Positions 9,438 through 63,897 of a stretch of DNA of 64,000 nt are shown piece after piece (the stretch's first letter is position 1; each line of letters opens with the position of its first letter). A program made the translations under genes and the position numbers. The notes under the pieces were generated by a model that ran no database searches, was not told the origin of the DNA, and was given only the letters and a program-made list of their open reading frames with translations. This stretch comes from Stylophora pistillata (Eukaryota): the NCBI RefSeq assembly GCF_002571385.2, contig NW_019217852.1, forward strand, positions 262,416 through 326,415, read 5' to 3'.

Positions 9438-12400
9438 TCATGCGAAGAAGTTAATAGTGTCCTTAATTATTCCGAGGGATTCATGGAGCTGTTCCTCTGT
9501 GATCACCAAAGGTGGTGTAAAGCGAATAATGTGATCATGGGTGGGTTTAGCTAGAAGACCATTATCCTTCAGTTTTAAACACACCTTCCAGGCATCAAAG
9601 TCTGAAAAAGGGGAAGGAAAATAATTCTAAAAATCCTCAGGTATCTGATCTATATCACTCAGACAAACAAGCCAACAAAAATTGTTGTAATCAAAAGAAA
9701 AATAAAGCTGCAAGAAACATCAGTTTTCCAAACTCCCTGACTTCTCCCTTGTAAAAAGTAAGAATACTCCACCACAAAAAAACCATTCACCCTCTCTAAC
9801 AGCCATTTTTTCATCTGCTGGTGTACTTTCACCAAATAAAAACTAATTTGTTAAAATGGCCTCACAAAACAGTACAAATGAACCAATAATAGTTGTAGGA
9901 TGACTTATACTTTCAATTTTTTTCTTCATATTTGTCCTCGACTCCAAATAAAATTCACAGACATCTCCCTGACCTGGAGGGATTTTTTGTTCTGACCATT
10001 TTCTAGCCTATGGCAACCATAAAAATGTACACTTTGCAAAGAGGAGCTAAAGTTTCATGGGATTAATGATGTGTTGCATCAAAGCTAAAATATAACTCCT
10101 TGTGTCAATTTTTCATACCCTTTGGAAAACAAGAACTTGGAGAACAAATTCATGGCAAGGACAAGAAACAAGGACACACTAGAACCACAAGTAACATCAG
10201 CTAATGGAGCTGAACCTCAGCTGTAGCAATGGGAAAAATTCACTCAGTTCTTTTTCCATATACTCCTTCTCATTCCCTGGTTTTTTATTTTTTTTGATTT
10301 CATAAGCTTGGCATTTGAAAACAATCTATGATTCAAAGCTTACTTTTATGATTTAGTGATAATCAATGCTAGCATATCTTACCATTTGTTGGTCTTATCT
10401 CTATCGCATTCATAAGTCCCTTGCCACGAGCAGTCTTTACAACAGCTGGGTTTAGCTTCTTCAATTCTGGAACCATGATTTCTCCAAGCTTTGCAGCATG
10501 TTCAGCCATTTTTTCTTCTTCCAAAACCTACATGTGTGATACATAATGATTTCTAAATAAATTTCAATTAATCAAATATAACTTTGCAAAAAATTTTACA
10601 GGAGTCTAAGGCATAATGAAAGGCTTTCTTGGAGAGGAACAAAATAAGCAGTGTATATCACAATATTTGAAAAAAGGTAAAGATACATTATGTAACTTAC
10701 ACTGAACCATAATGTATGGTTCTGAACGAGAAACAAGTTCATCTAATTATTCCCTTCCAAAGATTGCTACATTAGCCAAACAGTACTTGAGTAAAAAAAA
10801 GCACCAGGCTATCAAACAAGAAACCAACCATCCACTACAATTATCAATAATATTCATAACTTACTTTCAAAGCAGTTATAGCAACTTTGCAGCCAAGTGG
10901 GTTTCCACCATAAGTTGAGCCATGCTAAAAGAAAAAGAAAGCAGAAATCACCTCAGTTTAGCATTCTTTGAAAAAATACTGGAATAAAAAAATTAAAAAA
11001 ATGATTTTATAATGTCTGGCTAGAATTTTAGCATTACCTGCCCTGGTTTGATGGTAAGCATAACTTCATCATCACAGAGAACTGCTGAAACCTAATAACA
11101 CACAACACATTAGAGGAAGTCAGGAGTCAATCATGAACTTCTTTTGCAACACTAGGTCACCTATGTAACCCCTTAAGAGCAAATCTATGTCAATAGGGAA
11201 CAAAAATGATACATCAAGGTACAGACGCAAGGGATGATGAGCACAAAAAACCCAAAATTATTCTACATAGAATTCAACTGAGAAGGCTTTTAGTATGAAT
11301 TTGTTTCATTAAAAAAAATGACAGACCAGGGATATGAGATATAACAACAAGTCTGAATGCAACTCACTGGGTAAACTCCACCAGACAGAGCTTTTCCAAG
11401 AACAACAAGGTCTGGTCTAACATTCTCATGGTCAACACATAAGCGCCTGAAGTCACATAATATGTCAGATATTAGTCTCCAAAGTTGGGAGTGAATATAA
11501 CAAAAAATTGCAGCTCTGTTGCAACATTTCGAGTCATGTGAGGATTAAATCGAAAAAAAGCTATAAAATAATCAATTGATAGGGTAAGCAAAAGCTGAAG
11601 AGCTGAGAGTGGACAAAAAAGGAATAAAGCTGGTTGAGGACAGAGATTATCAACACTGACTGCAATGGACAAACTTACTAAATAAAAGTCAAAATGAAGA
11701 AATAATGTTGAATGTGAGCTGCAATCAAAGAAATCGTTGACAGCAACATTGAGTGCTTCTACACAAATAGAGCAAAAAACATATATACCTTCCAGTTCTC
11801 CCAAGTCCAGTCTGTACTTCATCAGCAATGAAAAGAACCTGGAACATTGTGTATATGCCATAAATGGGCTGCTTATCATCAACTCTTATGATTCCAAAAG
11901 CAGATATTTTAGTTGAGGAATGATTCCAAACATAATAATTATGTTTGATTGTGGAAAAATTACTGCTCCCAATTCTGCTTCCATTCTTTAGCAAAAATCA
12001 CAACTTTTTCCTGNATAAAAATATTAATTATAATCCATTTGAATGCGCCGAAAGCGAAGTCGAGTTATTCAAATGATTGAGTTTTGACTCGTTTCAAGTT
12101 ATCTTTTCACAGATTGTGTCAAATACCTCGCGTTACTTAACACCGCGTCACCCAACGCGTGACGCTTTCATGAAATAATCCTTCGCTTTGGCTCAAGACA
12201 AGAGCTTGGGACGCCTGTGTCGGCATTCGTTTTGACAAAACCATCTGTTCAAATAATTTCTACAGGCCATCATTTTTTTCGACTGCTTAGCCGTTTGTCC
12301 ATTCGATCTCATCTGTGAGGCTCATCTCAGTGTTCGAAAAATTAGCCGTTCATCCCTTCGATAATTTTCATTAGCCGTTCATCCATTCAACCTCATCCGT

Positions 12401-14587
12401 TCGAAAATTTTAATTAGCTGTTCATCCGTTCGACCTCGTCCGTTCGAAAATTTTAATTAGCCGTTCATCCGTTCGACCTTTTCCGTTCGAAAATTTTCAC
12501 TAGCCGTTCACCCGTTTGACCTCATCCGTTCGAAAATTTTAATTAGCCGTTCATCCGTTCACAGTATCCGTTTCGAACGGCTTTCCAAGCCGTTCGTCAC
12601 CCGTTTGCTTGCCGTTCCGTTCACTGTTCGAACAGCTACCATTAGGAACGTTTTCGCGTGAGAGGTCACATTTATATCGATCCCAGTCTGGCAAATGTTT
12701 CCTAACTGAAGTTTCCATCTTTTCAAGGTACACCTTACCCAAGTTCAAAGGGTTTACCCAAGAGAGAGGTTCAACACAACGGTTGTATTTGCTGCCCTCA
12801 CTTCTGGGTACAACAGCTCAAAGGTACTATTTCTAAAACAGAATAACCATTCCTTGAATGGAGGCTCGGCTGCATCCTTGCATCATTACTTTTACTGTTG
12901 GACCTCTCTACCTAGTCCCAAAAGTGTCCCTCTCCCAATCCCTGTGACATTTCTATGGTTACATTCTCTTAAGGGACCATATTTACCTGAATAGAAGTTC
13001 CATGTAATCTTTGTAATCAGAGTTTGTTCCTTTTTTACAAAACAAATTTCAAGGTGTTTTCCAGGACTCCAAATTCACCTTTGACCCTTTCATTCCCAAG
13101 ACTTCAAAAATCAATTCTCCTATCAGTCTACAGACATTTTTTAATGACAAATTCTGAAAACTTTATTGCTTGAGTTGAGAAGATTTTCAAGACTTTCCAA
13201 GACCTGTAGTCTTTTTCCAGGACTTTCCAGGCCTGGAAAATGTCAAAATAAAATTCCAGGACTTTCCAGGGTTCCACGACCCATATGAACTCTGTTTCAT
13301 AGTTTATATTTCCACGTGAAGAAGAAAAAATGTTCAAATCTGATAGTAAAAGTACATTCTTAAATATCTAAGCAAATGTGATCAAATGTCTATGAAAATG
13401 GGGGAAGAGAGAGCAAAATTGTTTGAGGGGCATTTATTTTGATTCTTGGCTACAGGGGAGGGGGGCACTTTTTTCTTAACTATTGGTTAATGCATCAGCG
13501 TGTGTTCATCGAGGAATTAAGCACATGGAAAGTTTGGAGAGCACAAATGATGCACAAGAGATGCACGACGCACAGCCGAGAGGAATTCTAGCTTCTTGAG
13601 TGTCCTCTAAACTTCCCAAGTACTTCAATTCTTGATAAACACACAGCTGACACATGAACCAATTATCTAATAACATTTTTAACGCTCTAGTTTATGTATT
13701 AAGGGCAGAAATTCCCTCTTCTACGCTTCAATACATTGTTTATTTTGATTTGGAAAAGTATTTTGCTATGCTTTAATGATCTCGCATCAGATTGGTCAAA
13801 AACTGACAGGTGAATTCATGCTTGTCAATGAACGTCATCAGCATGAACAATGGGAAATTGAGATTGGCAAATTGAATTTAATTGCACGAATTTACAAGCT
13901 ATGTCATAATTGCAGTTTAAGAACACGTGGCACAAACTTGATGATAGTCACAACACTCACCTCCAAAGCACCAAGATCGTTATACGAAATTAGTTCAAAG
14001 CCTGGCATAAAAGGACCGTATTCACCGTAACAGTCTGGATCAGACGACGACGACACTGCGGCGAGCGTCCTTCCCCAAAAATTCTCCTCAGCGAAGACAA
14101 TTTTGGCTTTGTTCGCTGGGATGCCTTTCACATGATAACCCCATTTTCGGGCCAATTTACAAGCCGTTTCGCCTCCTTCCACTCCCGTATTCATGGGCAG
14201 TAGTTTGTCATAGCCAAAAAGTTTCGTAGCAAACTCTTCGAATTCCCCCAAAACATCGTTATAAAACGCTCTAGAGGTTAACGTCAAGATTTCTGCTTGG
14301 TCTTGAAGCGTTTTCACAATGCGAGGGTGGCAATGTCCCTGGTTCACAGCCGAGTAGGCGGCGAGAAAGTCGAAGTATCGCTTTCCGGTCACATCCCAGA
14401 CAAATACTCCTTCCCCCTTCGCCAAAGCTGCTGGTAGAGGATGGTAATTGTGGGCGCCATAAGTGTCTTCTCGCTTGAAAATGTCTTCAGGCGTGAGCTG
14501 ATATTTGGTCGCAGCGGCTGGAGTAGAATACAATCTCGTCACAAGAAACAGATTTCTGTTCATGGAACGGGCACAAAGGCGAAGCAT
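9438..14587 (-). CDS. OAT: Ornithine aminotransferase, mitochondrial (class III PLP aminotransferase); one internal exon not present in the sequence
   Basis: Exons (minus) 14587-13961, [missing], 11838-11789, 11446-11368, 11091-11038, 10924-10865, 10527-10383, 9601-9438 (TGA). Motifs [43 protein letters not shown] (PLP lysine), [18 protein letters not shown]. Arg-rich N-terminal presequence. Confidence 0.95.
12285..12600. repeat. ~40 bp minisatellite (AATTAGCCGTTCATCCGTTCGACCTCATCCGTTCGAAAATTTT)n in an OAT intron, probably part of a transposon
   Basis: About 6-7 imperfect tandem copies, close to the assembly gap at 12014. Confidence 0.8.
13483..13664. mobile_element. Hairpin MITE-like element
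   Basis: Imperfect inverted arms ATTGGTTAATGCATCAGCGTGTGTTCATCGAGGAATT... / ...AATTCTTGATAAACACACAGCTGACACATGAACCAAT. Confidence 0.55.
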
Positions 14588-17127
14588 TGTTTCGCAGTTA
14601 ACAGTACAAATTAAACCGAAAAAACTAAAAGCGAATCACAGAAAAGGTAGTTTCGTCTATCAAATTATAATCAATTTTAACGTTACTACAATCACATAGT
14701 CATTAAGATCTAACTCCACTCCAACCACAACGACCGTAAAGAAAGAACTCAAGGAAGATAGGACGTCTTTATACCTATTTGAGAATACCATATTTGGAAT
14801 GAGACGGTCCAATCCTCTCGCCGCCAAGCATCGTTCTTTTGTTTCCCCGAACCTCCCCACAGAGTATAAACAGAAGAAAAGACAACAAAAAAAACAATAA
14901 AAAGCTAACGAAAAACAAACAAAAAACAGGGACTATCGACACATTTAGTGAAGAAATAAGAGTGGTAACTTGTGATCCTATTAATGACAATGATCATCTA
15001 GTTATCAATTTCCCATGCTATACAACAATAGAAGCTTCCATAACCACTGAATGTCTCTCTTATTCCATCTTGGTGTAGGGCCCATTTGTGGGTTCTGTTG
15101 TAAACTGCCTCTTCCACCTCTTTCAAATACCAATCTGGGTGTCTATTCTGACTCCACACTTTGCGGACAGGATGTGGACATCCTGTTCTGTTTTAATGAG
15201 TAACTTACATACCTGCCAACCCCTAGTGTACAAAAATCTGGAGACGTTTAGAATTTTTTGCAATGAACCGAAATCCATGCTGGGCATCACCGCGCGCGAC
15301 AACCTGAACCGCGCCAAATTTCTATCATATATTGTGTGATTTGATTGGCTGATTTCTTACCAATTACCATACTCGTAATTTGATCGCTTTGTTTAACTGT
15401 TCCCGATCAAGATTAAGTTAGAGCATTAAATCCATTTTGACATCTCAAAAACAACTAAATTAAAAAGCGACGGTAGCTATTTTCGGGGAGATTTGTTGCT
15501 CTAACCGAGAGACCGCGAGATTTGATGAAAACCTTGTAGTCTCTCGCGAAGATCGGGAGAGTTAGCAGGAATACACTTAATCCCTAACGCCATAACACTT
15601 GAGTGCATAAAGAAGAATTTGTTTGATAATCAAGTACTTCTGCAGTTGGTGATCTAAACTTAGTGATAAGACCTGATGTGGGATTCAAGGGTAATTTTGT
15701 AGGGAGAAATTGGATGCTTGTCACGCTTGAGAGTGAAAGAGCTATGAGTTTCAAGAACCCTCACCTTCAATATATTCAAGGTCAGTAAAAAAACTTTCTT
15801 TTGCACTTAGCTTATCCTCCTACCCTAGTGAGGTTTTATTTTTCGGCAGCGAAGCCGCTAATGGTGAGTGGAAAGGCCACAATTGTTGGCAAGAAAAAAA
15901 AAGCTTGCCAACAATAGGGGCTTTGCTGCTATCTGTTAACTGTAAGCTTCACTGCAAAGAAAAAAATCCTCTAGTTCCCAGGGTATTATCCTCCCATTCT
16001 GATATACTTCCTCAAAAACAACAAAATAAAGAATATTGCAACAAAGCAAATGTCATGTGATTTATTAGCAGTCCTGGAAAATTCCATAATTATGCATATG
16101 ATTGACGTGTAATCATGTTTGATACACCAAGGATATATAACAGTGCAGAGTTTTCCTTTTTTTTTCTTTTTTGACACAATTAATTTAAGAGACAAAACTA
16201 AATTCCACAAAATTAATGAAACTGAATTACCATAATTTCTAAGTGTCCCCTACCACCCAATTGATGTAAAGCATCTAAAATCTTAACACACACATTTTGA
16301 TTAAATAGAACACACATTCCCATTTGTTAAGATTCCCTTAAAAATTTAAAAGAAAACACAATACACTGCCTAAATTCCAGGTGCTTGAAACAGGGACCAT
16401 GAAAAATATCATACTTCTTTCAATAACTTATCGCTGACTTAAATAGGATAAATTCATGAAATAGAAAATTCACAAATTAGGATATGTATTATCAAAGATG
16501 TATGCAGTGGAAAAATATCTTTTCTATCTCCACTATCTGATAGATTTTAAAAATTTAATAACAACCCTTATTCGCAATTCAAAAAAATTACAAAACCCAA
16601 TTAATGTAAGTTAATTGTCTTCAGATACGCAAACAAATTGATCATGGAAGACATCATTTTGGAGAAAAAAAACTCTGTAGCCAGAGTTCAATCCAAATGA
16701 CAGAAGCCAAATTGCGTACACAAAAGTTCATTGTTGAGCAGGACGTCAAATGGTGTCAATGGCAGCTCAATTCTTAGAACATTCAAACACAATTTTCACA
16801 AGGTTAGGTAACTCTTTGGAAACTTGCAATTTAGGTAGAGATAAAATTTATATGGTCACTGGAGCATACCTCCTATCCCTACTATGATTGATTGAAGATT
16901 TTATTGCAATTGAACCATAAGAAGGTCAATGGAACATACCAGCTCTACTATATTTGATTTAAGCATTAGTAAAAGTTAATAAACCTATTCTGTTGCTAGT
17001 GAACCATAAAGCCAGTATACCAAAATTCACCTGATATACATGGTGACAAAAATAATGTTAGTATTCTGTAAGATGCACACATCAATTGCACAAAAACTCT
17101 AGCTAATAAAATTAATATAATTATGAT

Positions 17128-37826: not shown

Positions 37827-38820
37827 GTGTCAGTAACGTTCGGATTATAACTCTCCGATTTATGAAGCTTGTTTTTTCGATTCTGATGAAAATTTTGGAC
37901 AGTTTTTTCCTGTTTCGAGTGGCTTTAAAAGGTAAATTGACCTCGGAGAAAAGTTCAGCCAAGACGACGCGCGGCCGGGACGGGCACTGAAGAAATCAAA
38001 CTGCTCCCATGACTTTTTATTCCTCTTTATCTCGAACAACTTCTATCAGACCAACAGCTAATTAAGAAAGTCCTCTCCTACAAAAAGTCCCATCGCCCTC
38101 TCTAATCTCCCGCCCATTTTTGCATGCCGAGAAGACATTGCAGTATCGTTTGATCAGGCCTTTGGCGCTCGATTAACTTTCTCTTCTATTAGTTGTCGAC
38201 TAAAATTCCTGAAGCGTACGAGAATTCCAATGCCGCCAGGCCATTATCGATTGTGCTAGCATAACTTTTGGCATAATTTGGAAAAAAAGCATACTTTTTG
38301 CACTTTTTCTAAAAGTAGCAGTGGGTGTAATCGGCATATTTTTATATTTAGTTTTTTAAAGGGAACATTACTAGAGTCGCGACTTGCTTGGTCCCTAAGA
38401 TTGATTATTTTCAAGTTCTGTCCATGGGAAAGGGAACCACTTGACTGATACACGAGTAACAAAACTTTGGGCTGCAAAGATAAAGAATACAAGAAGTATG
38501 GGATTATTCAGTAGGTTCCAGTGGTACCGCGCTTTAGCGAGGTGACACCCACGCTTCACGTGTTAGGACCCGATCCGTGCGTATAAACCCTGCCCCAGGC
38601 GCCTCTCTGTTCACCTCTTACGAGACTACTCCGCAAGCTGCAGCCTGTAAAACTGCGGTACTAAGAGCAATACCACCGGCAACGAACCCAGAATGAGCAA
38701 TTTTCATTGCACTACTACTGGAGGTACATTTCATCGTGACTACCCCTCCCCTCTTGGTTCTGCTTAAATGGACTTTGTTCTCATGAGTGTAGCCTGGAAC
38801 TAGTTTTTCATGGAAGAAAC

Positions 38821-41800
38821 ATGGTGGTTCGTTTGCATCACGTTGAAGTACTCTGTCAAAATCTTCAGCAAAGTTTAAGGAAATTCTGCGGAAACTTTGG
38901 CTTTAGAGTGCTTGCTTCGTCTTCCTTTCCCAATCGGGTCACTCTGAACCGGGACTCTATAAATTTTGTTTTGAGCGAAGGCGCCAGTGAACGAGACACC
39001 GTTTACAACGTTGCCCTTGAAGTCAAAGATGTGAAACAAGTGGTGGATATCGTAGAAAGAAATAGCGGTAAAATAATCAGAAGACCAGAAACATTCGCTG
39101 ATCGTAACGGAGTGGTGGAATCCGCTGTAATACAAACTCCTGTCGGAAACGTTGTTCACACATTGTTAAATGCTTCTAGTTACAACGGTGTGTTTTTGCC
39201 GGGATTTCATGAAAGTGACAATTACAAGATGGCGTTACCCGAAAGGGTAGATTATGTAACCCCATCGAACTCGACTAACAAGAATTCAGTTATTGGCGAT
39301 CGTCTTTTAACACACTTTGATCACATAACGTTTGCATGCCCGTTAGGGACTTCTCCGTCGATTATGAAATGGTATGAGCGATGTTTTGGCTTCAGTAGGT
39401 TTAATATCAGCTCTGATGAGAAGTCAGAGGGCTTCATTGTGCAGAGTTCAATACAAGGAGCGAGCATTGGAATGAAGCTGACAGCCATGCAGTATTGGTT
39501 TTGCTCGGAATCAGAGCTAAGAATAAACACTGATGAACCAGGAGGTGGTGTCAAGTTTGTTTTTGCAGAACCACTACCGGGACAAGGTTAGCACATACAC
39601 ATTCGCTACAATGACAGAATCATTCAAAGTCATTCAATGTACATGTGGATATGAGCCTCTTAGGCTTCCAGGTAGTGGGCTTTTAAGAGAAAAAGGCAAG
39701 AGTACCATATAACCCCAAACATTAATTATACATTCAGACTAGTAGACTTCGTTTTTAAAGTTTTGTCGTGAAAGACAAAGAAGTAGAATGCATAATTAAT
39801 GTATGGGGTTATATGGTACTGTTTCCGAGAAAAACGCCTATTACTGAGGGGAGGGGGGATGGAGGCTTATTAGCTACTTATTTCAAGCCAAAATTAGGGT
39901 TCTTGTATTCTATTTGGTCACCAATTTTAAAGGTGGAGTTTGCTCCTTTACCTCATGACTTTCATCTTAGGCTTTAATCAAACATTAATGTAAAGATCAT
40001 ACTAGACCTTGCTTTAATTTTTTTTTTTTCAAATGTGTTGAAACGTAGAACACAAAAGCTACTGTTTTAAATGCTACTTGGCAACCTGGCATCTTGTCGG
40101 AATTAAAAGGGTTATCACTCTTAGTAATTCTCCTTGCTGTCTGCCATACAATTCATATGATGCCAGTTTGGAGAATTCGGTTTTGAATCAACTAACAATC
40201 CCCCAATTGACATTTTTCCTTGTTCTCATCAGTTGTTTGCTTGATGTAGTATTGTTTTTGTAAAGAGAAATTCTGTCTTGGTCACCTTGTAAGTCAAAGG
40301 AATAAATGCAAGGATCATGCCGTCTAGTACTTTGTGTATGTTTGTGGGGGGGGGGGGTAAGGAATATTTTTGGTTCAGTCGAAAATATTGTAAAGGTTGG
40401 TGTAAAACTTGTTACAAAAATGTCACTTTGTTTGAATTTTTTTTGTAGGCCCTAACCAGGTACAGACATTCTTAACAGAACATGGAGGACCAGGTATACA
40501 GCACATAGGCCTGCATACACCAAACATAGCTGAAGCTGTTGCTACCTTAAAGGACAGAGGAGTCAAATTTATTGATCCTCCATCTGCTTATTATTCTGAG
40601 GTGTGCAAGTTATACAGTGATCACCAATTTAGGATAGAAGGCTGGGGAACCTTGACTAGGAGGTGTTCAAGTTTGATTATACCCATTGGCTTAGCTTTGT
40701 TTTTTTTTTTTTTTTTCTGTGAAAGAGTTACTTCTTTCGTCTGTCCCAGAGGTATAAATGGAATCTTGGTATCCAATTTCTTGTTTTGCTTTCCAGACAC
40801 AGACAGTTTGGTGGACTTCATGATCTAGGGCTGACCTGTTATTGGAACTATCTGATCTCTTTGAAAGCAGCATCATGATTGCCCTTTCTTTGTCACATGT
40901 TAATTCATCTTTGATGTAGTGAGTGGAACAGTGCTGCAATCTAGCAGGGATATGGTGCCAAAGCCAACAAACGTTGCTCTTAGGGAGATTTGTGTTTGGG
41001 TGTGACTAAGCTTCTGCAAAAGTTTCTAGCAGCAGGGCAATCCAGTTTTTTTTATGCAAGAGCCCTAAGGCAACTAATAAATCTTGTAATAGTACAGTTT
41101 TTGACAACATCAATCTCATTTTATAGGAAGGTAAACTTCAGGAAATACGAGATGTAGGAGAGAGTGTGGAGTCTCTCCAGAAACATGGTATTCTGTTGGA
41201 TGCAGAGAGCTTCACGTCAAGTGAAAGCACAGCCTCATGTTTGGAAAATATGAATGTATGCCAAGATGCTGACAACAAGTGAGTTTTAATTTGACATTCC
41301 AAAGAGGAATCTAACATTTTGAAAATTGCTTATGAATGAGCAGATCCATCAAATTGTTCAACCATTCTTGATACAGGGGTTTCATTAAAGGCCAGGCAGC
41401 GGGGAAATTGACCGGTTGTGAGGACGGTTTTGCCCACCTGGTTTGACAATTGGGAGGAAAGTTTAACTTATAAAGAAGTTCAATTCAAAAAGTTTGACCC
41501 GCCTGTGAGAACCAGTCGCCCTCCTGCTGAAAATGTTAATAATGCTGTCTCTCCAACTGACTTTGGCATTCTGTCCCCAAAATGGTTGTCATGACAGAGT
41601 TCAAGTGTAACCTACATATATCTTATTAACCAAGTGCGAGGGCTGTACTGGGAGAATATTGGCCTAAGGTCTAGACAGTACGGACTGAGCACAGCTCGGT
41701 CTGTACAAAAATGACCGAGGGCCGATATTCTTCCAGTACAGTCCTGAGCAAGCTTGGTTAATAACAGATTTATTATACGACTGAAGTTCAAAGGGACACA

Positions 41801-46625: not shown

Positions 46626-49449
46626 CTACAGAATTTCTGCAAAACTCTTTAGGGACACAATTAATTGCAATAACTGGTAGCTTCTTGGGGAGAGTGACGA
46701 ACCACATAACGCCTCTAAACGACCTGTCAACATTAACACTTCCTGTTCAATTTCTCTCAGTACCTCTATATCATCTTGGGACATAACTCGCTGTGAATCT
46801 TTCCCTTTTGCCATCAGAGTCCTCTTTCGACAGAAAATAAAGCTTTGCAACCAATACGCAAGCAGCATAACAAATTCTTCACAGTTTGTAGTGCTAACAA
46901 TGCCATTAGAGAGGGGTGGAGATCTTTTGAAGTTAAAGACAACATATTTCAATCCAAAACTAGTTGTTATTTCTGCCCCTGACTCATTATCAATAGCACA
47001 ACAGTTTTTCATTACAACTTCAATCAGCTTTGTCTTCAAAAAATGCGACTGTATTGACTGAAGCAGTAATGTTTTGTACTTGACAGATGGTAACTCTACA
47101 TAAGCCAGGACTAAATCATTTGCTAGTCTTACAGCAGTGTCCTCTGGTCTTTGACTGACTAACATTGACAACTGAAGCATTCTCTGTAATAAATATAGAG
47201 GACAGAAATTATGCCCACAATGTTGGTCCAATCGTTCAACACAGTGTTGTTCTGTAGCCTTTTGAATCCACTCTACAACATCATGAATGTTACCTGAAGA
47301 TCTATCCACTGAGAAAAATTGGTGTGCATTTGTCTTGACAAGGCTGAATTTCTTTTTCTCCACTTCCTTTTCCATGACGTTTATGAGAAAAGACAAAGCC
47401 ATGGAGGCATTCTGTTTGAAACTTTCCACTGTATGAAACTGTGAGCATCCTGCTAGTTTTACTATCATGGAAACACACTCCCAAGTAATTTTCAGCCGTA
47501 ACATCTGTGCAGCCTGAGCAGGATGCAATTCTTGAATCTGTAGGAGAATTCTAAAACATTCTGTTCCATAGCCACTTTGCTTGGAGAGCAAGATATTCTT
47601 GAACAGGTAAAATAAAAGAGATGGAGGGGGCTTGCGACACGGACTCATAAAACTTGTGACAGTTGTCAGGAAGGTCTTGTGGAAATTCTCTTCTTTAAGA
47701 GCCTCCAGTGAATTCAACTGGTTCTCAGTGAAGGTTTTGCTCAAGCTTGCTTCTTGTTTGCTCACAAGTTCTGATTTTTTCAGTGGAACTGTGCAATGTA
47801 AAGGTACTGTGTAAAGCAAAAGCTCTTCATCTCTCACAATCCCATGTAAAGGAGGCCTCTTCTTTGGGGAGAAACTCTCCGCAGTAATTTTTCCCTGCTT
47901 TAGTGAAGACGGAGACTGACAAGGGCTTTTAGACTTCTTGTGTTTGTAGCCATCAAAACTTTTATTGACTTTAACAGGTTTTTTGCCAGTGATTTCTTTT
48001 TTATCAGAGCAGAATTTCTCAAAGAGGTTCATTCGTGACTCCCCAACAATTTTGTCATCCTTTTCAGTCTTGACCTGGAAAATAAAGAGAATTAGGAATC
48101 AGACATCAGAAAACACACAGCGGCCTTGTACATGAAGTTAGTACACTTAACTCAAACACAGCCTCTCTCCACCCTAGATAATAGACTGTTAGTGACACTC
48201 AATGACTGCCAAAGGAGTTAAAATACATCTACCAACTTTTGTGGAGTCAAAGTCAATTCAATATTTTTGTACAGGACCCAATCATAGCCAACACAGCAGA
48301 AGAGTTTCAAGAAAATTTCAAACTTTTCGATGAAGCCTTTTTGATGAGAGTTTTGACACAACCTTATTTCTAGTGTCCCCCCTTTTAAAAAGACTTCTAT
48401 CTACTCAGATTGATTCAAGCTCTTAATCTAGCTAGGAAACATTTAGAAAATGTACCAGTCAGATCACAAAAGTTCAAGTGTTCGAATTTTTTTCTCTTTT
48501 TCAGCAAGAGGAACTGCTTTGCAATAATCAATTTTGGGCAAGAGCGAGCATATGATAACCTGCAGTAAACCAGCATCTTGTCCAGGAAAAGTAATACATG
48601 TTGTCTTGGTAATTTTATGCAGCAGATGCCAGGAGAAGGCCCAGTATAGTACTTACTGTCCACTAGGTTAGCAAGACTAACCTGTCGTGAGTTAAAACAT
48701 TATCAACTTTGAAGAATTTTAATATCATGATATTGAGCCACCTCGATATTAAATTATTAGCCTCCTTGTGGTTTTAAAAGCACAATTAAAGACAGCGCTT
48801 GGTCACTAGTTTAGGATTAGGGATACTCATAAAGAAAAAACCAATTTTGTGTTCTACACGCTTACACTACACTGAATGCTAACAGATATAGTGAAAGTTT
48901 ATTCTGTTCCAAGAAATTCAATTTTCTTCAGAGCTTAAGCAAGATGTTCGTATAACCCTAACACCTCAATATGCATACAGCAGTTAAAGAAAAAGAATAA
49001 AAATGGCAAAACAAAAGATTGACCATGAAGCTTTGTTTTAGGATAAGTATAGGGAAAAACAGGAATCTTTCCATTCTAATTCTCACCTGATCTACCGAAG
49101 AACTGGTTTCCTCACATTCGGCTGAACTGGTTGCAACTCCCTCGCCAGTCTCCTTCTTCACTGGACTCAGTTTCAGTGGTTTCTTCCAGTTTCCAATGTC
49201 GATGAGCTTTACCTGAGCTTGTAGCTTCTTAACACCATTTTCGCTAAATTTGAATTTTTTTAACGGACGACAGGGCTCAGATTTAGCTGAACTGCTTATT
49301 ACGATTCTTTCAATGACATCGCCCCTCGTTTTCATTGATTCGACGACTTCATCTTCCCCATCGCTGATAACAATTGATGTTATCTCCGATGTCTTTTGGT
49401 TGACAGAGTCTTCCTCGTCACTTATAACAATCACTTCGTTTTGCGCCAT
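46626..49449 (-). CDS. SIMC1: SIMC1-like protein (N-terminal SUMO-interacting motifs plus Nse5-like helical domain; SMC5/6 localisation factor), ~603 aa
   Basis: Exons 49449-49087 and 48074-46626 (phase 0). Three SIMs: VIVISDEED, IVISDGEDE, IVISSS. Segment SFMSPCRKPPPSLLFYLFKNILLS...ECFRILLQIQELHPA resembles the vertebrate SIMC1 Nse5-like domain (FVSP..PP...ILLS...E...LL..IQQLHPA) as recalled. Confidence 0.72.
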
Positions 49450-49687
49450 TTACATCTGCAACATAACCATGCTCCCTCATGCTTGTTTTGTGTAGGTATA
49501 TCAATTTACTCGAGGAACGTCAAAGTGTTATCTCAATTGGCACTGGCTTTAAACGACCCCTGATGAACCTTGATGTTCCTCGATGCTCCTCTCTACGTCA
49601 AGCCCTTTGTTTAGACCACAGAATTCCGGTGCTATGGAAACGTGACGTAAGCACTTTAGGACTCTATTATAGTAAGTTTTAAGGAAC

Positions 49688-49811
49688 GAGTACCATATAA
49701 CCCCATACATTTATTATGCTTTCCACTTCTTTGTCTTTCACGACAAAACTTTAAAAACAAAGTCTACCAGTCTGAATGCATAATTAATGTATGGGGTTTT
49801 AGGGTACTCTT
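49688..49811. mobile_element. ~125 bp MITE (same family as 39698-39822)
   Basis: TIR GAGTACCATATAACCCCATACAT / ATGTATGGGGTTTTAGGGTACTC. Confidence 0.8.
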
Positions 49812-50900
49812 ACCAGTTTTAAATTTCTACCGGCTTTCACACGATGACAGTATCTGAATAAACGCTGAATAACCGTTTGAAAAGCCTGATTGTAAAGTGC
49901 ATCTGTTCGAACGAATTGCGGACGTTTCGCCAACGAGTTGTTTCGCCAACAACGTCTCGTTCACGAACGTGTTAGGTTGATTCGCCAACGTCCTATGTCG
50001 ATTCGCCAACGTCCTATGTCGATTCGCCAACGTCGTATGTCGATTCGCCAACGTCCTACTGGTCAATTCGCCAACGTCAGTTATCCAAGACTAACGAAAA
50101 AAAAAGGGTGCTTATTGATGTTTAGAATGCAATCCTGATCCTTGAGTCACTGCCAGTTTCGCTTGACTGACTTCAGATCAATTTGCACGATTTGCAAAGG
50201 TAAAGGCGTCTTTAAAAAGAGAATGTTAATAATTATTGCCCCCAGCTAGGCTTTGTCTCGTTAAACTTTAACCAACATAAAATAAACTGAGGGCAGGTAA
50301 AAAAAACTGATCCTGGAAATTTCCTCTTTATGAAAAGAAAGGAAAGAAAATTGCGTGCGTGTCTTTTTTCAACCACTGACGCAAGGATTGTAAAAGAAAC
50401 AAAGCTGTTGTTGTCAAGCTTCAGGAACAAAGAAAGTGTGATTTCACACCTTGTTACTTTTGAGGGATGTCGCTTTTCGGACAGGACTAAGTGGCTGCAA
50501 AAGAGTAAGGTGGAAGAACAGAGTAACACACAATTGCAAGTTGGTCATTTCTTTCTCAGATTGTGGTAGCTCCTGAAGGAGCCGTTTTTTTTTGTTTTTT
50601 TTTACGGGACTTACCCAGCGGTAAGTCACCGAACTGTAGTCTACTTGCCCAAGTTAGCCTTGTGCACTCCTTGGGCTTCTTTTGGGCTTCTTTATTCCGC
50701 TCTCGGCAGAATGAGACCTTGACTTTTATTATCGCATGGTAGGTTATAAATGGCGTTAACGAAAACGAGGGAAGGGGAAAAAAGTTTGTTTGTCGCTCGC
50801 ATTCGCTGCCGTGTTTAAATAGCTGTTTGGATCACGTCCAAAAGCATCTCTTCAGTAAAGCGCTAAGTTGTTATGAAACGGACAACAATAACTAACATAA

Positions 50901-51288
50901 GACCTGATTCAGACGCCGAACTTTTCATGAGCCGAACTTAATTCGAATTTGGACCGACCCAAATTAACAAAAGTACGCCTGTTGATTCAAAGGCCGTTCT
51001 TTTTGGCCGTTCCAAATACAGTTCCAGTAAAACCAATCACATTACTTGCAAAATACATTATAATAGTTTATGCATTAAGATCGGCGCATGAAAAGTACGA
51101 CGTCTGAATCAAAGCCGTTCCAAAGGCTTTCCAGAGGCGAAATTCTCGGCCAAGTCAGGCGGGAAGAATGGGTGAGCCGTTCCAAATTGAAATAGCCGTT
51201 CCAAATTGATTCAGACGCCGATCTTTTCATGTACTTAATTCAAGAAATTAGGTTCGGCTCATGAAAAGATCGGCGTCTGAACTGGGCC
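50901..51288. mobile_element. PIF/Harbinger (Tourist-like) MITE nested in the foldback element
   Basis: TIR G(A/G)CC..TTCAGACGCCGA.CTTTTCATGAGCCGAAC at both ends. 3-bp TSD TAA (50898-50900, 51289-51291). Confidence 0.8.
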
Positions 51289-51560
51289 TAAGTCGCACCT
51301 ACCATTAGAATGCCGCCAGTAAACAGTAGAATTCGTTTTAAATATATGACAGTTTTCGCTTCGCGCTCAATTAAAAGAAGCAAGGAGTGCCATAATACGC
51401 GCGTCAGCAAAAACTAGTAGACATGTTTTTAAAAGTATATTTCAACAAGGATTGTTGACTGTTATCCATTCAAAGAAGAAAAGTCTCACCTTCTTTATAA
51501 AATGCCACAACACAACATTGCAAGAGAATTGCCTTCGTAAACACCGAGTTTCCTCTTGAA

Positions 51561-53650
51561 GATGATGATAGAAGGTTTATTAAAAGTATTCAAAAATGGC
51601 ACCCAAGTGGTGAAATACATGTGAATTTACAAGTATACTTTAAATATTTAAAAAATACGAAAATCTTACATTTGACTTTAAAATTAAGAGTCTAAAGGGA
51701 CTGGGAATTACAAGAATCGGCAGTTACATACCAATGAAAAACGCTTAGGTTTGCTTGACTACAAGAACTGGGCGTTAGACGCCATTGTTGGGAAGAAAGA
51801 TTTTTTAAATCTCTCGGTCCGGCATTTAAAGAGTGATACATGGTTTTTGTTGCGCAACTCATAAACGTGGCAATCGGCGCGCTTTGGTGGAATAAGGTGG
51901 TACAGCCGTGACCCAGGCACACAGATACCGCCCCAAACTTTCTTGCAGAGTTCGTCTCTTCTCACATTTAGGCGAGTGGAGTTTGCAGCCACAATGGCGT
52001 CTTTGTAGCTCAGCGCCGGAAATAATATACGCAGAGCTCTTTTCTGAACTCTTTCGATCATGTCCTTGAGGTAAATTGGTAGGCTAGTAGACCAAGTGAC
52101 GCAGGCGTATTCGAGGACCGATCGTACCAAGGCATAAAATATGTTAATAAGGTCTTCGGGTGGAATTCCGGACCGCTTGAGCACTCTTAAGATGTAAAGA
52201 CGTTTTGAGGCTTTGGAGACAATCTCACGCACGTGCTCATTCCACCCAAGAGTGTCGCTGATAGTGACTCCAAGGACCTTGTGTGAGGAGACCCGTTCTA
52301 AGGGACGTCCGTTGACGCACAAAGGGCCAAGATCTGGCCGTGTTCTGGGCGAACTAATCACAAGTTCCTTGCACTTGTTTGGGTTGAGGTTCATATTATT
52401 GCGCGACGACCACTGTGCAATGGCGTCAAGGTCTTTCTGAAGGGACGATGTGCCGCCTGATGGGATGGCCTCGGATATTGTTAGGTCGTCTACATATTTC
52501 CAGTGGCTCGATAGTAATGGAGTTTCAATCGCGAGATCGTTAATCATCAGGAGGAACAGGATGGGGCCAAGCTTAGTGCCCTGCGGGACTCCAGCGTGCA
52601 CGGGCAACCAAGGGGATATAATGTTCTTAATCTTAACAGCTTGGCGACGGCCATAAAGAAAACTGCAAATCCACCGGATAATAAAACCACGGACCCCAAG
52701 GTGGATGAGTTTATTGACTAAGATAGTGTGGTCAATATGGTCAAAAGCCTTACTAAAATCCAGGAAGCAGGCCCTTAAGCACATACCTGGTTTGTCAATA
52801 GAGGACAACCAGTTGTGCATCATATCCAACAAGTTTGGGGCGTGAGAGAGTCAACTGATGGTGAGTCACCGTCTACTTCTAAATCACTGAACCAACGGTG
52901 TGAACACGCCCACCTCCCAAAAGCGCTTATTGCCGACTGAGGAAAGCGACGCATCGGGATCCTTTTCTTTTCAACGCACAGCGGGTTTAGTTGGTTCATT
53001 GAAAGCGGATTCCAGTGAACGGAGCCATGGTCCGAAGACCCTAATTGCGCGCTGACAATTGGTTCGCTATAGTATTCACTAAAATCCGTTAAAATAAGGT
53101 CTAGTATGCTATTGCCCCGAGTGGGCCTCATAACTACTTGTTTTAGGTTATGATTGGCTAACATGTCTGAGATGTCCTGGGTGTTAAAATCGCCTAATAA
53201 CACTACGCCACAGTCTGGATAAGAAGTCTTTACGGAGTCTAGTGTTTCTATGATGTACTTTGTGCGATCTCGCTGCACTTGGGCAGAGGCCACAGGAAAA
53301 TACACCACCCCACATATAATACCAGATAGTGGGCGTGGTAGACGATGAGGGCGTAACCATAGCCACAAACACTCGTGTTCTGGAGACTCCAAGTCAGATC
53401 TACGCTTGAAAGGTATCTCTGAAGACACGAACGCGCACACGCCACCCCCTATTCGGTTGTGGCGGTCACGTCTCGCGATGTTGTAACCTGGAATGGTAAG
53501 GATGTTATTATCGATGTAGTCATGCAGCCAAGTCTCCGTAATAATTGCAATATCCATGTGAAACGTTAAAAGCTGGGCAGTCAACTCGTCCAGTTTGTCC
53601 CTGACCGATCGAGCATTTGCCATGTAGAAACTTGGGAAGCACGTGCAGGA
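51561..53650 (-). mobile_element. Internally deleted CR1/L2-group LINE (APE endonuclease plus partial reverse transcriptase)
   Basis: ORF 53668-52820: NARSV, ITETWL, RRDR..GGGV, GDFN, PTRGNSILDL, SDH (APE). ORF 52832-51759: FLDFSKAFD, GVPQG, YVDD (RT). Linker and N-terminal RT subdomains absent. 3' AATAAA plus (ATC)3 tail at 51561-51582. Confidence 0.92.
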
Positions 53651-53954
53651 AAATAAATAACAACACACACAAGTGAAGGTGAACTTTTATTGAGACGTTG
53701 GCGAATTGACCAGTAGGACGTTGGCGAATCGACATAGGACGTTGGCGAATCAACCTAACACGTTGGCGAACGAGACTTTGGCGAAATAACTCGTTGGCGA
53801 AACGACCGGATACCGTTCGAACCAGTAAAGTCGTCACGTGAGTACCAAAGAATTTCCACATGGGGCCTAGGTGGGGTTTATCAATTCTAAAGCCTGTGTG
53901 GACACCACAAGAGCTATTTAAGGGAAGTGATAACCTTTCGGTTATTATTCCATT

Positions 53955-54097
53955 GGGAAAGACATCTCGAAAATGAAAGTTGCTGAAAGAGCACTAACCC
54001 GCCGAGATTTGTGGCCTCCCCCCAGGGGTACACACTGACGACATCCAAAGTGGATCCTGGCCAATCAGGTGGAGACTATTCATCCAGGGGATTCTCC
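53955..54097 (+). promoter_or_regulatory. STING-A proximal promoter: IRF/ISRE, COE-like, CCAAT and NF-kB motifs
   Basis: GAAAATGAAAGT 53969-53980, TCCCCCCAGGGG 54017-54028, GGCCAATCAG 54059-54068, GGGGATTCTCC 54087-54097. Same order conserved upstream of the paralog. Confidence 0.7.
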
Positions 54098-54196
54098 AGG
54101 CGAATGAATTTGCTTCCGCCAGTTTGGCGCATTTGTTACGGCCAACCATACCAGCAACGCTGTATCCTGTTTTAGAAAGGAATACTTTTATCTGCA

Positions 54197-55553
54197 ATGG
54201 CTAATAATTCTCCTTTCCGCGGAGATGATGTAGCTCGGCAAGAACATAATGGCTTTGGACCACTTTCCGAGCTTCGTGGAAATACCGCTACGATCACATC
54301 AGCCATCGTGGTTGTGATAAGTAGCGCGACGCTTTTGTTAGCAGTGACGTGGAACGAAATGAGGGAAGGGATTCGTTTCCTGGTGTTTACAGTAGCTTTT
54401 CTTACCTTAAGTGTCGTTCTTGGAGAAATAGTACGAAGATTGTGCTTGGTGTCTGAAGAAATTAAACATAAACACGCGAGATATCGAGGAGACTGGAAGG
54501 CTGTTCTCAAGACAACTTTCACTTTCGGCAATGTCGAGTGTATTTTAGGTGTCGCTACCGTGTCCACTCTGATGCTGTGTTATCAGTTGTATGCTTATCG
54601 CGAGGTTTTCTTTCGTCCAGATTTTGCCATCTTGTTTTTGTTGAATTGTCTCGTGGTTCCGCAATTATCGTTCCTAGTGGGTCTACGACAGCTCTCTCCT
54701 GTAGAAACATCGGATTTGAACGAAAAAGAAAACAAGAATGTGGCTGATGGGCTGGCTTGGAGCTACTACTTTGGTTATCTGAGGCTGGTGCTGCCAAGAC
54801 TGGAACTACGGATATCAGAATCGGAGTACTTTCGTCATAAAATAACAGACAGGAAGCTTTTCATCCTACTGCCAAAAACGTGCTTCACTTGTGATGACAT
54901 TGAACAGGCTGATTCAAGGGTGAAATGGGTCGGCAATCTCCCAGAGAGTAAAATTAACAGGGGAGGAATTAAGGAGAGAAGTTACAAACATGCAGTACAC
55001 GAAATAGTGATGCCCTTCCCAGACGGGACGGAGGAAAAGTACCACTTTATCGTGGAGTATGCCACGCCTCTAATGTCCTTGTATGATATGTCTAGGTTTA
55101 CAGACGCACAATTAACCGGTTCAGAGCGGGATCATCAGGTATAGTACAGTGTCTAGCATCTGAACGCTTGAATATGCTTTGTCATTTGGTTTTAACGGTG
55201 AAAGAGCTCAGCCCCAAAAACATTTTAATTTCTTCTTCTGCTTATTAATTTGAAGACAGGCGCACAGCAGATTTGTTTTTTAAATATTATTAGCGCAGTC
55301 ATATAATTGTGTTATTGAATTTGGCTCAATCTGAATCTTTGTCTCGTCGTTACTTTTCACATAGGTGGTGTTGTTCATCCGAAAACTGACAGAAATTCTG
55401 GGGAAGAGTGAAGAATGTAAAGGAAGGTATGAATTGATTCCATTTTCTGGAGATGAAGACAAAAACAAGATTGCAGACATCCTGGTTGCTTTGCATAATA
55501 ATGCCAACATAATGGTGGATGAAGAAGCTGAAGTTAGCATACCAACACAGTGA
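54197..55553 (+). CDS. STING1: Stimulator of interferon genes paralog A (TMEM173), 376 aa, 4 TM plus cyclic-dinucleotide-binding domain, no vertebrate C-terminal tail
   Basis: Exons 54197-55138 and 55365-55553. Motifs [47 protein letters not shown]. Confidence 0.96.
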
Positions 55554-59475: not shown

Positions 59476-59606
59476 TGGGAAAGATCTTTCGAAACTGAAA
59501 GTTGCTGCAAAAGCAGTTTTAAACTTTCCCCAAGGGGTACACGCCGACGACATTCTGGCGACCGTGTGGCCAATCAGAGCTAGAGTATTCATCTAGGGGA
59601 TTCCCC
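59476..59606 (+). promoter_or_regulatory. STING-B proximal promoter: IRF/ISRE, COE-like, CCAAT and NF-kB motifs
   Basis: GAAACTGAAAGT 59491-59502, TCCCCAAGGGG 59527-59537, GGCCAATCAG 59568-59577, GGGGATTCCCC 59596-59606. Confidence 0.72.
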
Positions 59607-59707
59607 CCTAATCAAATGTTCTGCACTCCCCAGATCGGCGCATGTCATTGTGACCATCTTCACAAGTAAAAGAAATTCTGCGAAAGGAAAGAAAACTTTT
59701 ATCCGTA

Positions 59708-61000
59708 ATGGCTGATAACGCTCATCTTCGAGGAACTGGCGTAGTTCAGCAAGAAAATAATGGCTTTGGACCACTTTCCAAGCGCCGCGGGAATACTGCT
59801 ACGGTTACTTCAGCAATCGTGTTTGTGATTAGCGGCGCGTTACTCTTGTTGGCAGTTCGAAAGGAAAAAGCAACGAGCGAAGGGATTCACTTCCTTGTGT
59901 TTACAGCAGCCTTGCTCACGTTAAGTTTCGTTCTCGGAGAGCTTGTACGAAGATTCTGCCTGGTTTCTGAAGAGTTAAAACACAGGCACGCAAGATATCA
60001 AGGAAACTGGAAGGGGGTTCTTAAGACAACTTTCACCTTCGATAATGCCGGAAGTATTTTAGTCGTTGCTATCTCTTCCGCTCTGACATTGTGTTTTGTG
60101 TTGTATGAACAATACGAAGCTTTCTCTGGTCCAGGTTACCCCATCTTGTTTTTCCTGAACTGTCTCGTGGTTCCGCAGTTGTCGTTCCTTGTGGGCCTGC
60201 GTCAGCTGTCTCCTGTAGAGACGTCGGATTTGAACGAAAAAGAAAACAAGAATGTGGCCGATGGGCTGGCTTGGAGCTATTACTTTGGTTATCTGAAGCT
60301 GGTGCTGCCAAGGCTTGGAGATCGTATCGCCGAATCAGATACATATCGTCATAAGATAACAGTCGAAAAACTTTTCATCTTACTTCCAAAAACGTGCTAT
60401 ACATTTGATGCAATAACTAAAGCAGATCCCAGGGTAAAATGGGCAGGTAAACTCCCCGCGAGTAAAATTAACAGGGCTGGAATTTTGGAGAGAAGTTACC
60501 AGCATGCGGTACACCGCATAGAGATGCCCCTCCCAGATGGAACAGTGGAAGAGTACCACTTCGTCTTGGAGTATGCTACGCCTCTCATGTCCCTGTATGA
60601 AATGTCAGATCATGCTAAGGCCCCTTTGACTGGTCCAGAGCGTGATCATCAGGTGAACTAGCCTTATCCGTTGTGTGATTTTATATTCATGATAACACGT
60701 CAGATATATTTTCTTTCATTTCTTTTCGAGGTTAATTTTCCATGTGATTTTTAATTCATTTTTTCTTGAGCTGATGCTTGCATGCACCCACTGAATTTAT
60801 TCTTCCTTGTAACCTAGGTGGTGTTATTCATCCGAAAGCTGAAGGAAATTCTGGATGACTCAGAGGAATGCAGAGGAAAGTATGAATTGGTACCAATTTC
60901 AGGAAATGACACAAACAAGATTGCAGATGTGCTCGTGGGAATGCATGGTGCAGCCAGCATAGATTTAGAAGACGAGACTGATGAGCAAACTAAGCAATAG
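59708..61000 (+). CDS. STING1: Stimulator of interferon genes paralog B (TMEM173), 375 aa
   Basis: Exons 59708-60652 and 60818-61000, same phase-0 intron position (RDHQ|VVLF) as paralog A. Motifs [40 protein letters not shown]. Confidence 0.96.
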
Positions 61001-61141: not shown

Positions 61142-63897
61142 CATACTCTTCTTCTGTTTAAGTATTAATTAACCCTAAATTTACACCATCATATCTGTAT
61201 GCATATTTCTCTATTAAATATTTTCTTTGGTACTGAGAAGGAGAATACACATTCAAATTTCTTAGTTTGGCCATCATTTCCTTTATTCTCGTGGTCTTTA
61301 TAATGAATCAGAATGATTCAACAGTATTACTATAAAGAAAAAATTAGATACTGATCACTCGTGGGATTTAAAGAAAGTAAAAATAAAACTTGCCACAAAG
61401 CACCTGTGTGTCCACTTTGACTGTGTGGTCAGATAATCATATTAGTATACCAGGGCCCAGTTGTTTGAAGGCCAATTAGTGCTAACCCAAGGATGAATTT
61501 TAATGTGGGTTTCTTTATTTCATGTTCAAAAGCCTATTTGGGATAATTTTACCCTATTCTTTTTGGAGCATCCAATTATCAACTTGTAGACAAAAAGAAT
61601 ACTACTGAAGTTTCTTTTAAAGCTTTCAGATCTTAAATCAGTTTCCACACTAACCCTGGGTTAACTTGACCCTGCTAATTGAACAACCATACCAGTACAT
61701 TAAGTTTGAAAAAAGTTAATCAGCAACTTTGGTGTTTCTTTAAAGGAGAGTCTCACCATTGAATATTCAAACTTTGCTGCAGCTTTAATATTTTTCTTTG
61801 TTTCCAGCCAGAAGTTTTTTCATTTGTGAAAGTTAAGCTCACCCAGATTGTACAATGGATTTAAGTCAAAGTTACAAATAAGTAACAGCAAAGAAAGAAG
61901 AAAACTCAGAGTAGGGCTTACTGGTCAAGTGGCTTTTATAATTGTAAAATTGGTTTGAGAGAAGGCATAGGGGAATGCCCTCTAAATCCCGCAAGAGCAG
62001 AAAGTAATTTTTTTTCTTTGCAGAATATGTTGACAGAAATATCCCAAACTTTATTTCAAGCATAAAAGATTGCACTTGATGTAAAATAATGGTTGTGAGG
62101 ATGTAAAAATAATGTTTTTTCGAGGCACTATTAAGGAATGGTCGTGATCAGGTTTCATGCAGGAATTAGAAAAAAAAATTTCATTTCACAAATCACAAAT
62201 TTAGAAGGGGAAAACTATAAATCTAGATTTACCANGGAGAACTGCATCTAAGACCTTGTTAAATAGTATTCTTGTCTCACAAAAACGCGTACTCCGTCTT
62301 ATCCACTTTGCCCCAGTAAGGGAGCATGCAATACCCTTTTTTTTAAAAGCAAAACTTCTTCCACTAGAATTCCGATATTATGAAAAAATTGCTAATCTAA
62401 TGAATGACATTAATACTACTTCTGCACCAAGTAATATTTCGAATTTGTTTCTAAAATTTCCAGCGTTCACTCTTACGGCACACATTCATCAACTTTTGAG
62501 CATTTTTATACTAAAAAATCTGCGCTTAATGTTCAAAGTAAGGCTTTTTCACGTATTGGCATTAAAATCTGGAATGGGATATCAACTAGTCTTAAAAACT
62601 TATCCAAGAACTCTTTTAAAAAATCCATTAGAACAAAATTGAAGTTCTAGAAACTGAAAACTCCTATGTTGAAATAGATACTCTAATTAATAAGATGAAA
62701 GTTAACTTCTAACTGTAATTATGTTTAGTCTGTAGTCGACTCCTAGAAAGGTCAAATAGATACTTAAATTAATACTTGATGAAAGGTTAATTTCTAACTG
62801 TAATTTGTTTAGTCGCTAGTCTCTTTCTAAGTCTGTAGTTTTCCTTTTTCTGCTCTCATGTTGTAATTGTATGTGAATATTATTATGTAAAATTGAGTAA
62901 AATTACTTTTCAATTGTCTGGCTTGCTGCAACTAGCTCTTCGCTATTTGCAAGCCAGCATAGTAATAACCACCTGATATTTACTTGGAAATAAAAACTTG
63001 GAACTTGGAACATACTCTTATTCTGTTTAAGTATATATCTGTATCCGTCATATCTGTAGGCATATTCTTGTATTAAATATTTTCTTTGGTACTGAGAAGG
63101 AGAATACACATTCAAATTTCTTAGTTTGGCCATCATTTCCTTTATTCTCGTGGTCTTTATAATGAATCAGAATGATTCAACCGTAGTACTATAAGGAAAA
63201 ATTAGATACTGATAACTCTTGGGATTTAAAGAAGTAAAAATAAAACTTGCCACAAAGCACCTTGGTGTCCACTTTGACTGTGTGGTCAGATAATCATATT
63301 AGTATACCAGAGCCCAGTTGTTTGAAGGCCAATTAGTGCTAAACCAAGGATGAATTTTAATGTGGGTTTCTTTATTTTATGTTCAAAAGCCTATTTGGGA
63401 TTATTTTTCCCTATTCTTTTGCAGCATCCAATTATCAACTTGTAGACAAAAAGAATTCTACTGAAGTTTCTTTTAAAGTTTTCAGATCTTAAATCAGTTT
63501 CCACACTAACCCTGGGTTAACTTGACCCTGCTAATTGAACCATACCAGTACATTAAGTTTGAAAAAAGTTAATCAGCAACTTTGGTGTTTCTTTAAAGGA
63601 GAGTCTCACCAATGAATATTCAAACTTTGCTGCAGGTTTAATATTTTTCTTTGTTTCAAGCCAGAAGTTTTTTCAATTGTAAAGTTAAGCTAACCCAGAT
63701 TGTATAATGGATTTAAGTCAAAGTTACAAATAAGTAACAGCAAAGAAAGAAGAAAACTCAGAGTAGGGCTTACTGGTCAAGTGGCTTTTATAATTGTAAA
63801 ATTGGTTTGAGAGAAGGCATAGGGGAATGCCCTCTAAATCCCGCAAGAGCAGAAAGTAATTTTTTTTCTTTGCAGAATATGTTGACAGAAATATCCC
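61142..63897 (+). repeat. ~0.9 kb direct duplication (61142-62046 and 63011-63897) of the sequence downstream of STING-B, spanning a gap at N62235
   Basis: Near-identical text in both copies. The same ORF tail IFLSTYSAKKKNYFLLLRDLEGIPL appears twice in the ORF track. Confidence 0.9.
62236..62990 (+). mobile_element. 3' fragment of a CR1/L2-group LINE (RT C-terminal region, frameshifted)
   Basis: ILVSQKRVLRLIHFAPVREHAIPFF...KIANLMNDI...SAPSNISNLF, then in another frame FSRIGIKIWNGI...SFKK. Confidence 0.75.

Follow-up and report, generated by a model that had tools for sequence, protein, structure and literature searches.

A head-to-head SIMC1 and STING gene pair of stony corals, separated by transposon insertions in Stylophora pistillata

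In a 64,000-nucleotide window of the Stylophora pistillata genome (contig NW_019217852.1, positions 262,416 to 326,415), a SIMC1-like gene on the minus strand and a STING gene on the plus strand, here STING-A, are transcribed divergently with their ATG codons 4748 bp apart. Our analysis pointed to a real and old head-to-head pair, apparently unreported, whose close spacing probably goes far back in coral evolution, as judged from sequence comparison. On balance, and not firmly, we favor the reading that it is an old compact pair of stony corals in which a cassette of interferon-stimulated response element (ISRE), CCAAT box, and kB site is the promoter of STING itself and SIMC1 has a separate one. 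An initial annotation had proposed an antiviral module coupled through one inducible promoter; its coordinates, target-site duplication (TSD), 3902-bp element, and 4748-bp spacing all proved exact.

The SIMC1 open reading frame of 603 residues is built from two exons with a GT/AG intron. Exon 1 (49449-49087, minus strand) encodes two motifs resembling SUMO-interacting motifs (SIMs) at residues 6 and 26, and exon 2 (48074-46626, minus strand) encodes an Nse5-like helical domain. The splice is supported by a 2,114-base Logan contig, whose full-length protein P0001 was identical at 599 of 603 residues. With phmmer, the C-terminal 398 residues matched human SIMC1 (7T5P_A) with an E value of 1.3e-13, the runner-up reaching only 0.15. 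Foldseek analysis of an AlphaFold model (mean pLDDT 67.6) returned 7T5P_A as the top hit (E 5.6e-10, TM scores 0.60/0.71) and as the sole PDB match with E below 0.001, and the Atlas placed the protein with a SIMC1 cluster at 0.95. The homology to SIMC1/Nse5 that had been annotated was thus recovered by phmmer, AlphaFold-Foldseek, and Atlas matches in agreement, and, judged by sequence and modeled fold against PDB 7T5P, the protein is a SIMC1 ortholog. No SIMC1 model was matched in a Pfam scan. Like human SIMC1 in the SIMC1-SLF2 complex (7T5P), the coral protein combines tandem SIM-like motifs in a disordered N terminus with a C-terminal Nse5-like helical domain; it differs in its length of 603 residues and its identity of ~19-22%, and binding to SLF2 or SUMO and an antiviral role would follow by analogy only. 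At the level of hydrophobic-acidic motifs, at least one SIM-like motif was present in 8/8 and at least two in 7/8 full-length coral SIMC1 proteins. SIMC1 is single-copy in this genome, which also contains a CANIN-domain gene (PF14816, SLF2-type) on contig C588. In humans, where SIMC1 (C5orf25) contributes to viral DNA silencing, SIMC1 and SLF2 are described as bringing SMC5/6 to viral or extrachromosomal DNA, and SIMC1 induction by SV40 large T is reported there as marginal (PMC9708086). Alignment searches with SIMC1 found no locus in viral and prokaryote collections and six loci among metagenome contigs, all too short to hold STING coding sequence. The 179 relatives found among 1.84 billion proteins came as proteins free of gene context and added no synteny information.

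STING-A consists of exon 1 (54197-55138, plus strand, ATG at 54197), which covers the transmembrane and ligand-binding domains, and exon 2 (55365-55553, plus strand), together encoding 376 residues. Pfam recognized the transmembrane domain PF23417 and the cyclic-dinucleotide-binding domain PF15009; with its conserved pocket, STING-A shows the metazoan STING architecture. Its residues 181-314 were identical to PDB 8EFM/8GJZ at 134/134 aligned positions. 8EFM is Sp-STING1 of S. pistillata with bound 2'3'-cGAMP, a protein described as preferring 2'3'-linked dinucleotides (bioRxiv 10.1101/2023.02.22.529553), and the residue numbers S189, Y194, R261, and Y263 agree between STING-A and that paper. 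SIMC1 and STING are both already known kinds of protein, and STING-A has already been crystallized. The Sp-STING1 paper, as far as accessible, describes the protein; the promoter, the array position, and the neighbor come from the present analysis.

Beyond what had been annotated, STING-A proved to be the first of eight tandem STING matches (C69:316612-354928); two further matches lie elsewhere in the genome. The second copy, STING-B (59491-60985, plus strand, ATG at 59708), has its own ISRE, CCAAT, and kB motifs at 59491, 59568, and 59596. Among the other copies, the one at 327846 has no detectable 5' half, the one at 348415 is frameshifted, and those at 337405 and 343498 share 2,800 bases around an N gap at 100% identity, which may reflect duplication in the assembly. 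Downstream of STING-B (61186-63897), ~0.85 kb is duplicated at 1.85-kb spacing with 95-99% identity. In a tree of 19 STING sequences, the three Montipora copies formed a clade of their own, and another clade held most of the copies from this genome, so STING arrays likely grew separately beside SIMC1 in different coral lineages.

Most of the interval between the two genes is inserted DNA. Copies of the 8-bp TSD GTTCGAAC, which occurs three times in all in the window, flank the large element (49913-53814, 3902 bp) at 49905-49912 and 53815-53822 (both on the plus strand). The terminal inverted repeats (TIRs), 8-bp TSD, dispersed copies, and lack of a transposase mark it as a non-autonomous TIR transposon. 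It had been annotated as one element; the TSD-flanked unit stands, and it turned out to be a composite of three insertions, a TIR shell with ~1.4 kb of own sequence and two nested insertions. One of these is a miniature inverted-repeat transposable element (MITE) of ~387 bp with inverted ends (50902-51288). The other is a 2,078-bp fragment of a long interspersed nuclear element (LINE; 51561-53638, minus strand) with endonuclease and reverse-transcriptase frames, ~1.1 kb shorter internally than a copy on contig C84. The LINE family carries a GAT-repeat tail, and at least eight other copies are 99% identical over 1.27 kb. The shell has dispersed relatives (at least 42 matches), among them L011, a 1.35-kb copy that is 88-94% identical and free of both inner insertions. 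TSDs of the shell copies were exact for L002 (8/8 bp), matched at 7/8 positions for L009, and were absent for L011.

Two smaller insertions lie toward SIMC1. A palindromic MITE of 132 bp (49683-49814) is flanked by the 8-bp TSD AGTTTTAA at 49675-49682 and 49815-49822 and has a second copy at 39690-39826. A solo transposon terminal repeat of 64 bp (49606-49669), missed by the initial annotation, matches at 100% identity the ends of a young DNA transposon family whose full copies carry a YqaJ+SWIM frame. A motif resembling a cyclic AMP response element at 49643, on the SIMC1 side, was discarded because it falls inside this transposon end. The YqaJ+SWIM DNA transposons (L046:2725-6563 and L047:4538-7433) have imperfect TIRs of ~62 bp, and their copies are 100% identical, which suggests very recent activity of the family.

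Removal of the large element and one TSD leaves 838 bp between the ATGs, in line with the ~840 bp expected. Without the small MITE, which has its own TSD, the remainder is 698 bp and not ~715 bp as first calculated, and with all insertions taken out, including the 64-bp end, it is really ~633 bp. Measured between ATGs, the spacing of the pair is accordingly below 1 kb (633-838 bp) after removal of insertions and 4748 bp in the current allele. Native upstream DNA amounts to ~155 bp at SIMC1 and ~375 bp at STING-A, and both reading frames are intact in the filled allele.

The compact ancestral interval gained support from paralog promoters and from a contig of another coral. A non-coding block next to SIMC1 (49489-49585) was matched upstream of two STING paralogs, C69:333847 and C69:348415; one match lies at -621..-528 (score 66, 200-shuffle maximum 42) and the other at -534..-479 (score 47, maximum 38) from the ATG. 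The spacing of both paralog promoters fits an interval without insertions, and at the junction one of them carries just one target-like site, a match that is weak taken alone. Comparison of the junction with paralogs D and G was equaled in 21/2000 and 7/2000 shuffles. To the left of the TSD, 90 bp aligned weakly (D, 23/2000; G, 629/2000), so the argument for an empty site is carried mainly by the flanking blocks and the spacing.

The second, independent line of support is L017, a SIMC1 contig of the Complexa clade that holds a spliced 663-residue SIMC1 frame and 356 upstream bases. On the strand opposite SIMC1, it contains the ISRE-like GAAAGTGAAA, the CCAAT motif GGCCAATC, and the kB site GGGGATTCCCC at 241, 303, and 326 bp from the SIMC1 ATG, a cassette spanning 241-336 bp upstream and facing away from SIMC1. 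The ordered triad arose in 0/5000 shuffles and the kB site alone in 5/5000, with a pattern written after the sequences had been seen. Aligned to the STING promoters of B, D, and E, the upstream segment outscored every one of 1000 shuffles; alignment was weaker for G (5/1000) and A (22/1000). In a quick SIMC1 tree, L017 grouped with Montipora/Acropora (SH-aLRT 96), and SIMC1 of this genome grouped with Oculina and Orbicella. L017:1-356, where a spliced SIMC1 contig runs through a STING-type cassette, contains several upstream ATGs; either an extended 5' leader or divergent transcripts that overlap may explain this.

The cassette of STING-A lies on the plus strand and comprises a predicted ISRE/IRF-like motif GAAAATGAAAG at 53969-53979, a CCAAT box at 54059-54067, and a predicted kB-like site GGGGATTCTCC at 54087-54097, located 228, 138, and 110 bp before the ATG, respectively. 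The sites are putative, found with ISRE and kB patterns that we take to represent the consensus. The kB site of STING-A is one base off the palindromic GGGGATTCCCC, the form present in five paralogs and L017. The full triad stands upstream of 6 of the 10 STING loci at a near-fixed distance from the ATG, and five of these six have no neighboring SIMC1. The remaining four loci showed one kB site only, one ISRE only, and, in two cases, no motif by strict pattern; of the latter two, one is a disrupted copy with a variant cassette in the alignment, and the start of the other was not located. All seven strict kB motifs in the 134,000 bases scanned lie upstream of a STING copy. At fourfold-degenerate sites, STING-A is 60-65% identical to its paralogs, and its introns did not align with theirs above shuffle in 4/4 comparisons. 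By this sequence comparison the cassette is under constraint, and it is associated with STING, not with SIMC1. That the interval contains an ISRE/kB cassette had been annotated correctly; it is STING-proximal, no more than 230 bp from STING-A, and STING copies without a neighboring SIMC1 retain it.

Adjacency of the two genes was found in related corals. In Oculina patagonica, two STING genes (ACROYT_G005213 and G005214) and SIMC1 (G005215) have consecutive locus tags. Neighboring accessions were seen in Montipora capricornis (SIMC1, XP_068746941/942; STING, 943, 946, and 947) and Montipora foliosa (SIMC1, XP_068708908/909; STING, 910 and 911). Moreover, among the 14 SIMC1 representatives from corals whose contigs are at least 30 kb long, at least 8 were on a contig of exactly the same size as that of a STING protein, counted among 120 of 190 STING matches and with the longest contig per entry. 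Accession and shared-contig evidence carries neither orientation nor distance. In Orbicella, SIMC1 and the one STING cluster examined are on different contigs (788,370 versus 220,703 bases). Neither of the adverse outcomes examined, a protein unrelated to SIMC1/Nse5 or absence of the adjacency in related corals, was encountered.

As a control, we followed the next gene on the other side of SIMC1, a non-immune, metabolic HPDL-like gene (38740-41005, plus strand). HPDL and SIMC1 accessions are 3 apart in Acropora palmata and A. muricata, HPDL is 913 in M. foliosa (within 5 of SIMC1), and HPDL and STING accessions are 4-7 apart in two Porites. In M. capricornis, HPDL is on the contig of SIMC1, yet its accession is far from that of SIMC1, so accession order is an imperfect proxy for gene order. 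Gene order is described as highly conserved across all corals, for which a split ~415 million years ago is cited (PMC6214176), and the HPDL-SIMC1-STING block is likewise common to Robusta and Complexa; such general microsynteny does not predict the SIMC1-cassette distance of <350 bp in L017. Being as syntenic as STING, HPDL weakens the case for a selected SIMC1-STING module and counts against the special antiviral module of the initial annotation. Sea anemones, by comparison, have poorly conserved gene order.

In the reading that we favor, the ISRE-CCAAT-kB cassette would be the inducible promoter of STING itself, and binding of NF-kB and IRF proteins would produce feed-forward induction of STING. 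SIMC1 would use a separate promoter close to its own start. STING1 induction is listed for Nematostella cells activated with poly(I:C) (PMC13319465), and for the cGAMP response NF-kB is implicated rather than single IRFs (PMC8713801). The adjacency may persist through slow change of coral gene order together with two tightly packed promoters. Four independent insertions, plus two nested in the large element, were presumably tolerated after falling into the spacer between the first ~155 bp of SIMC1 and the last ~375 bp before STING-A. As the insertion leaves the cassette of STING-A intact, any uncoupling would fall mainly on SIMC1.

A less probable but serious alternative is a true bidirectional immune promoter, in which the same IRF/NF-kB sites induce STING in one direction and SIMC1 in the other, so that cyclic-dinucleotide sensing would be coupled to the silencing of viral DNA by SMC5/6. 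SIMC1, originally ~0.4-0.5 kb from the sites, would then lie 4.5-4.6 kb away because of the insertions, with weakened induction. Similarly tentative is the extended proposal that such a promoter has been kept since before the Robusta-Complexa split, switching on SIMC1 with STING, and that the insertions here are a natural knock-out, possibly segregating. Several observations speak for shared control and weigh against separate promoters. In L017, the ordered motifs appear near enough to the SIMC1 ATG to act on SIMC1, and the spliced SIMC1 contig continues through them. The SIMC1-proximal block, kept in STING paralogs whose introns do not align above shuffle, hints at some dependence between the two halves of the promoter. 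The adjacency in Oculina and both Montipora agrees with this alternative as well. It is countered by the cassette accompanying STING duplicates, by the equal synteny of HPDL, and by L017 being a single contig that stops 20 bases beyond the kB site and contains no STING coding sequence; SIMC1 and SMC5 are not mentioned in the main text of the cnidarian immune-challenge papers searched. Mammalian TAP1-PSMB9 and PARP9-DTX3L are head-to-head pairs of immune genes with interferon-inducible bidirectional promoters; only a few hundred bases, including IRF and kB or STAT sites, separate the two genes of each pair. There, two-way activity has been shown, whereas the coral pair offers layout and motifs in an allele 4.7 kb wide.

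It is improbable that the insertions matter for STING-A rather than for SIMC1, either by cutting it off from the upstream element at 49489-49585 or by a spread of silencing marks, with lowered expression. Retention of this block in 2/8 paralog upstream regions and the one-base departure of the STING-A kB site from the palindrome of five paralogs would be in keeping with such an effect, but the block is missing from the other 6/8 regions, STING-A keeps ISRE, CCAAT, and kB, and the observed/expected CpG ratio of exon 1, 0.97, gives no sign of long-term methylation decay. An assembly artefact as source of the large insert, which would leave the genes still ~0.7-0.8 kb apart, is very improbable: the assembly is imperfect nearby, with 2,800 bases around an N gap in the adjoining array exactly duplicated, but the insert has an exact 8-bp duplication on both sides, asymmetric termini typical of the family, and clean nested junctions relative to L011.

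In the literature searched, largely openly accessible papers, we found no SIMC1-STING arrangement, no link of SIMC1 to STING, no head-to-head or bidirectional STING promoter in invertebrates, and no report on coral or cnidarian SIMC1/Nse5 evolution. If SIMC1 were co-induced, this would be the first sign that an early-branching animal links foreign-DNA silencing by SMC5/6 to its cGLR-STING response, and corals with filled or empty alleles would provide a natural experiment. Even without co-induction, Sp-STING1, known from structural work, now has a fixed place in the genome, SIMC1 appears as the anchor beside which STING arrays likely expanded in separate coral lineages, and a conserved ISRE-CCAAT-kB promoter is defined for reporter work.

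Among neighboring features, a class-III aminotransferase gene is located at 13904-14635 (minus strand), and an FAA-hydrolase gene (L032:1129-1704) lies directly past the STING array. Positions 12350-12607 of the window contain five to six 43-bp tandem repeats.

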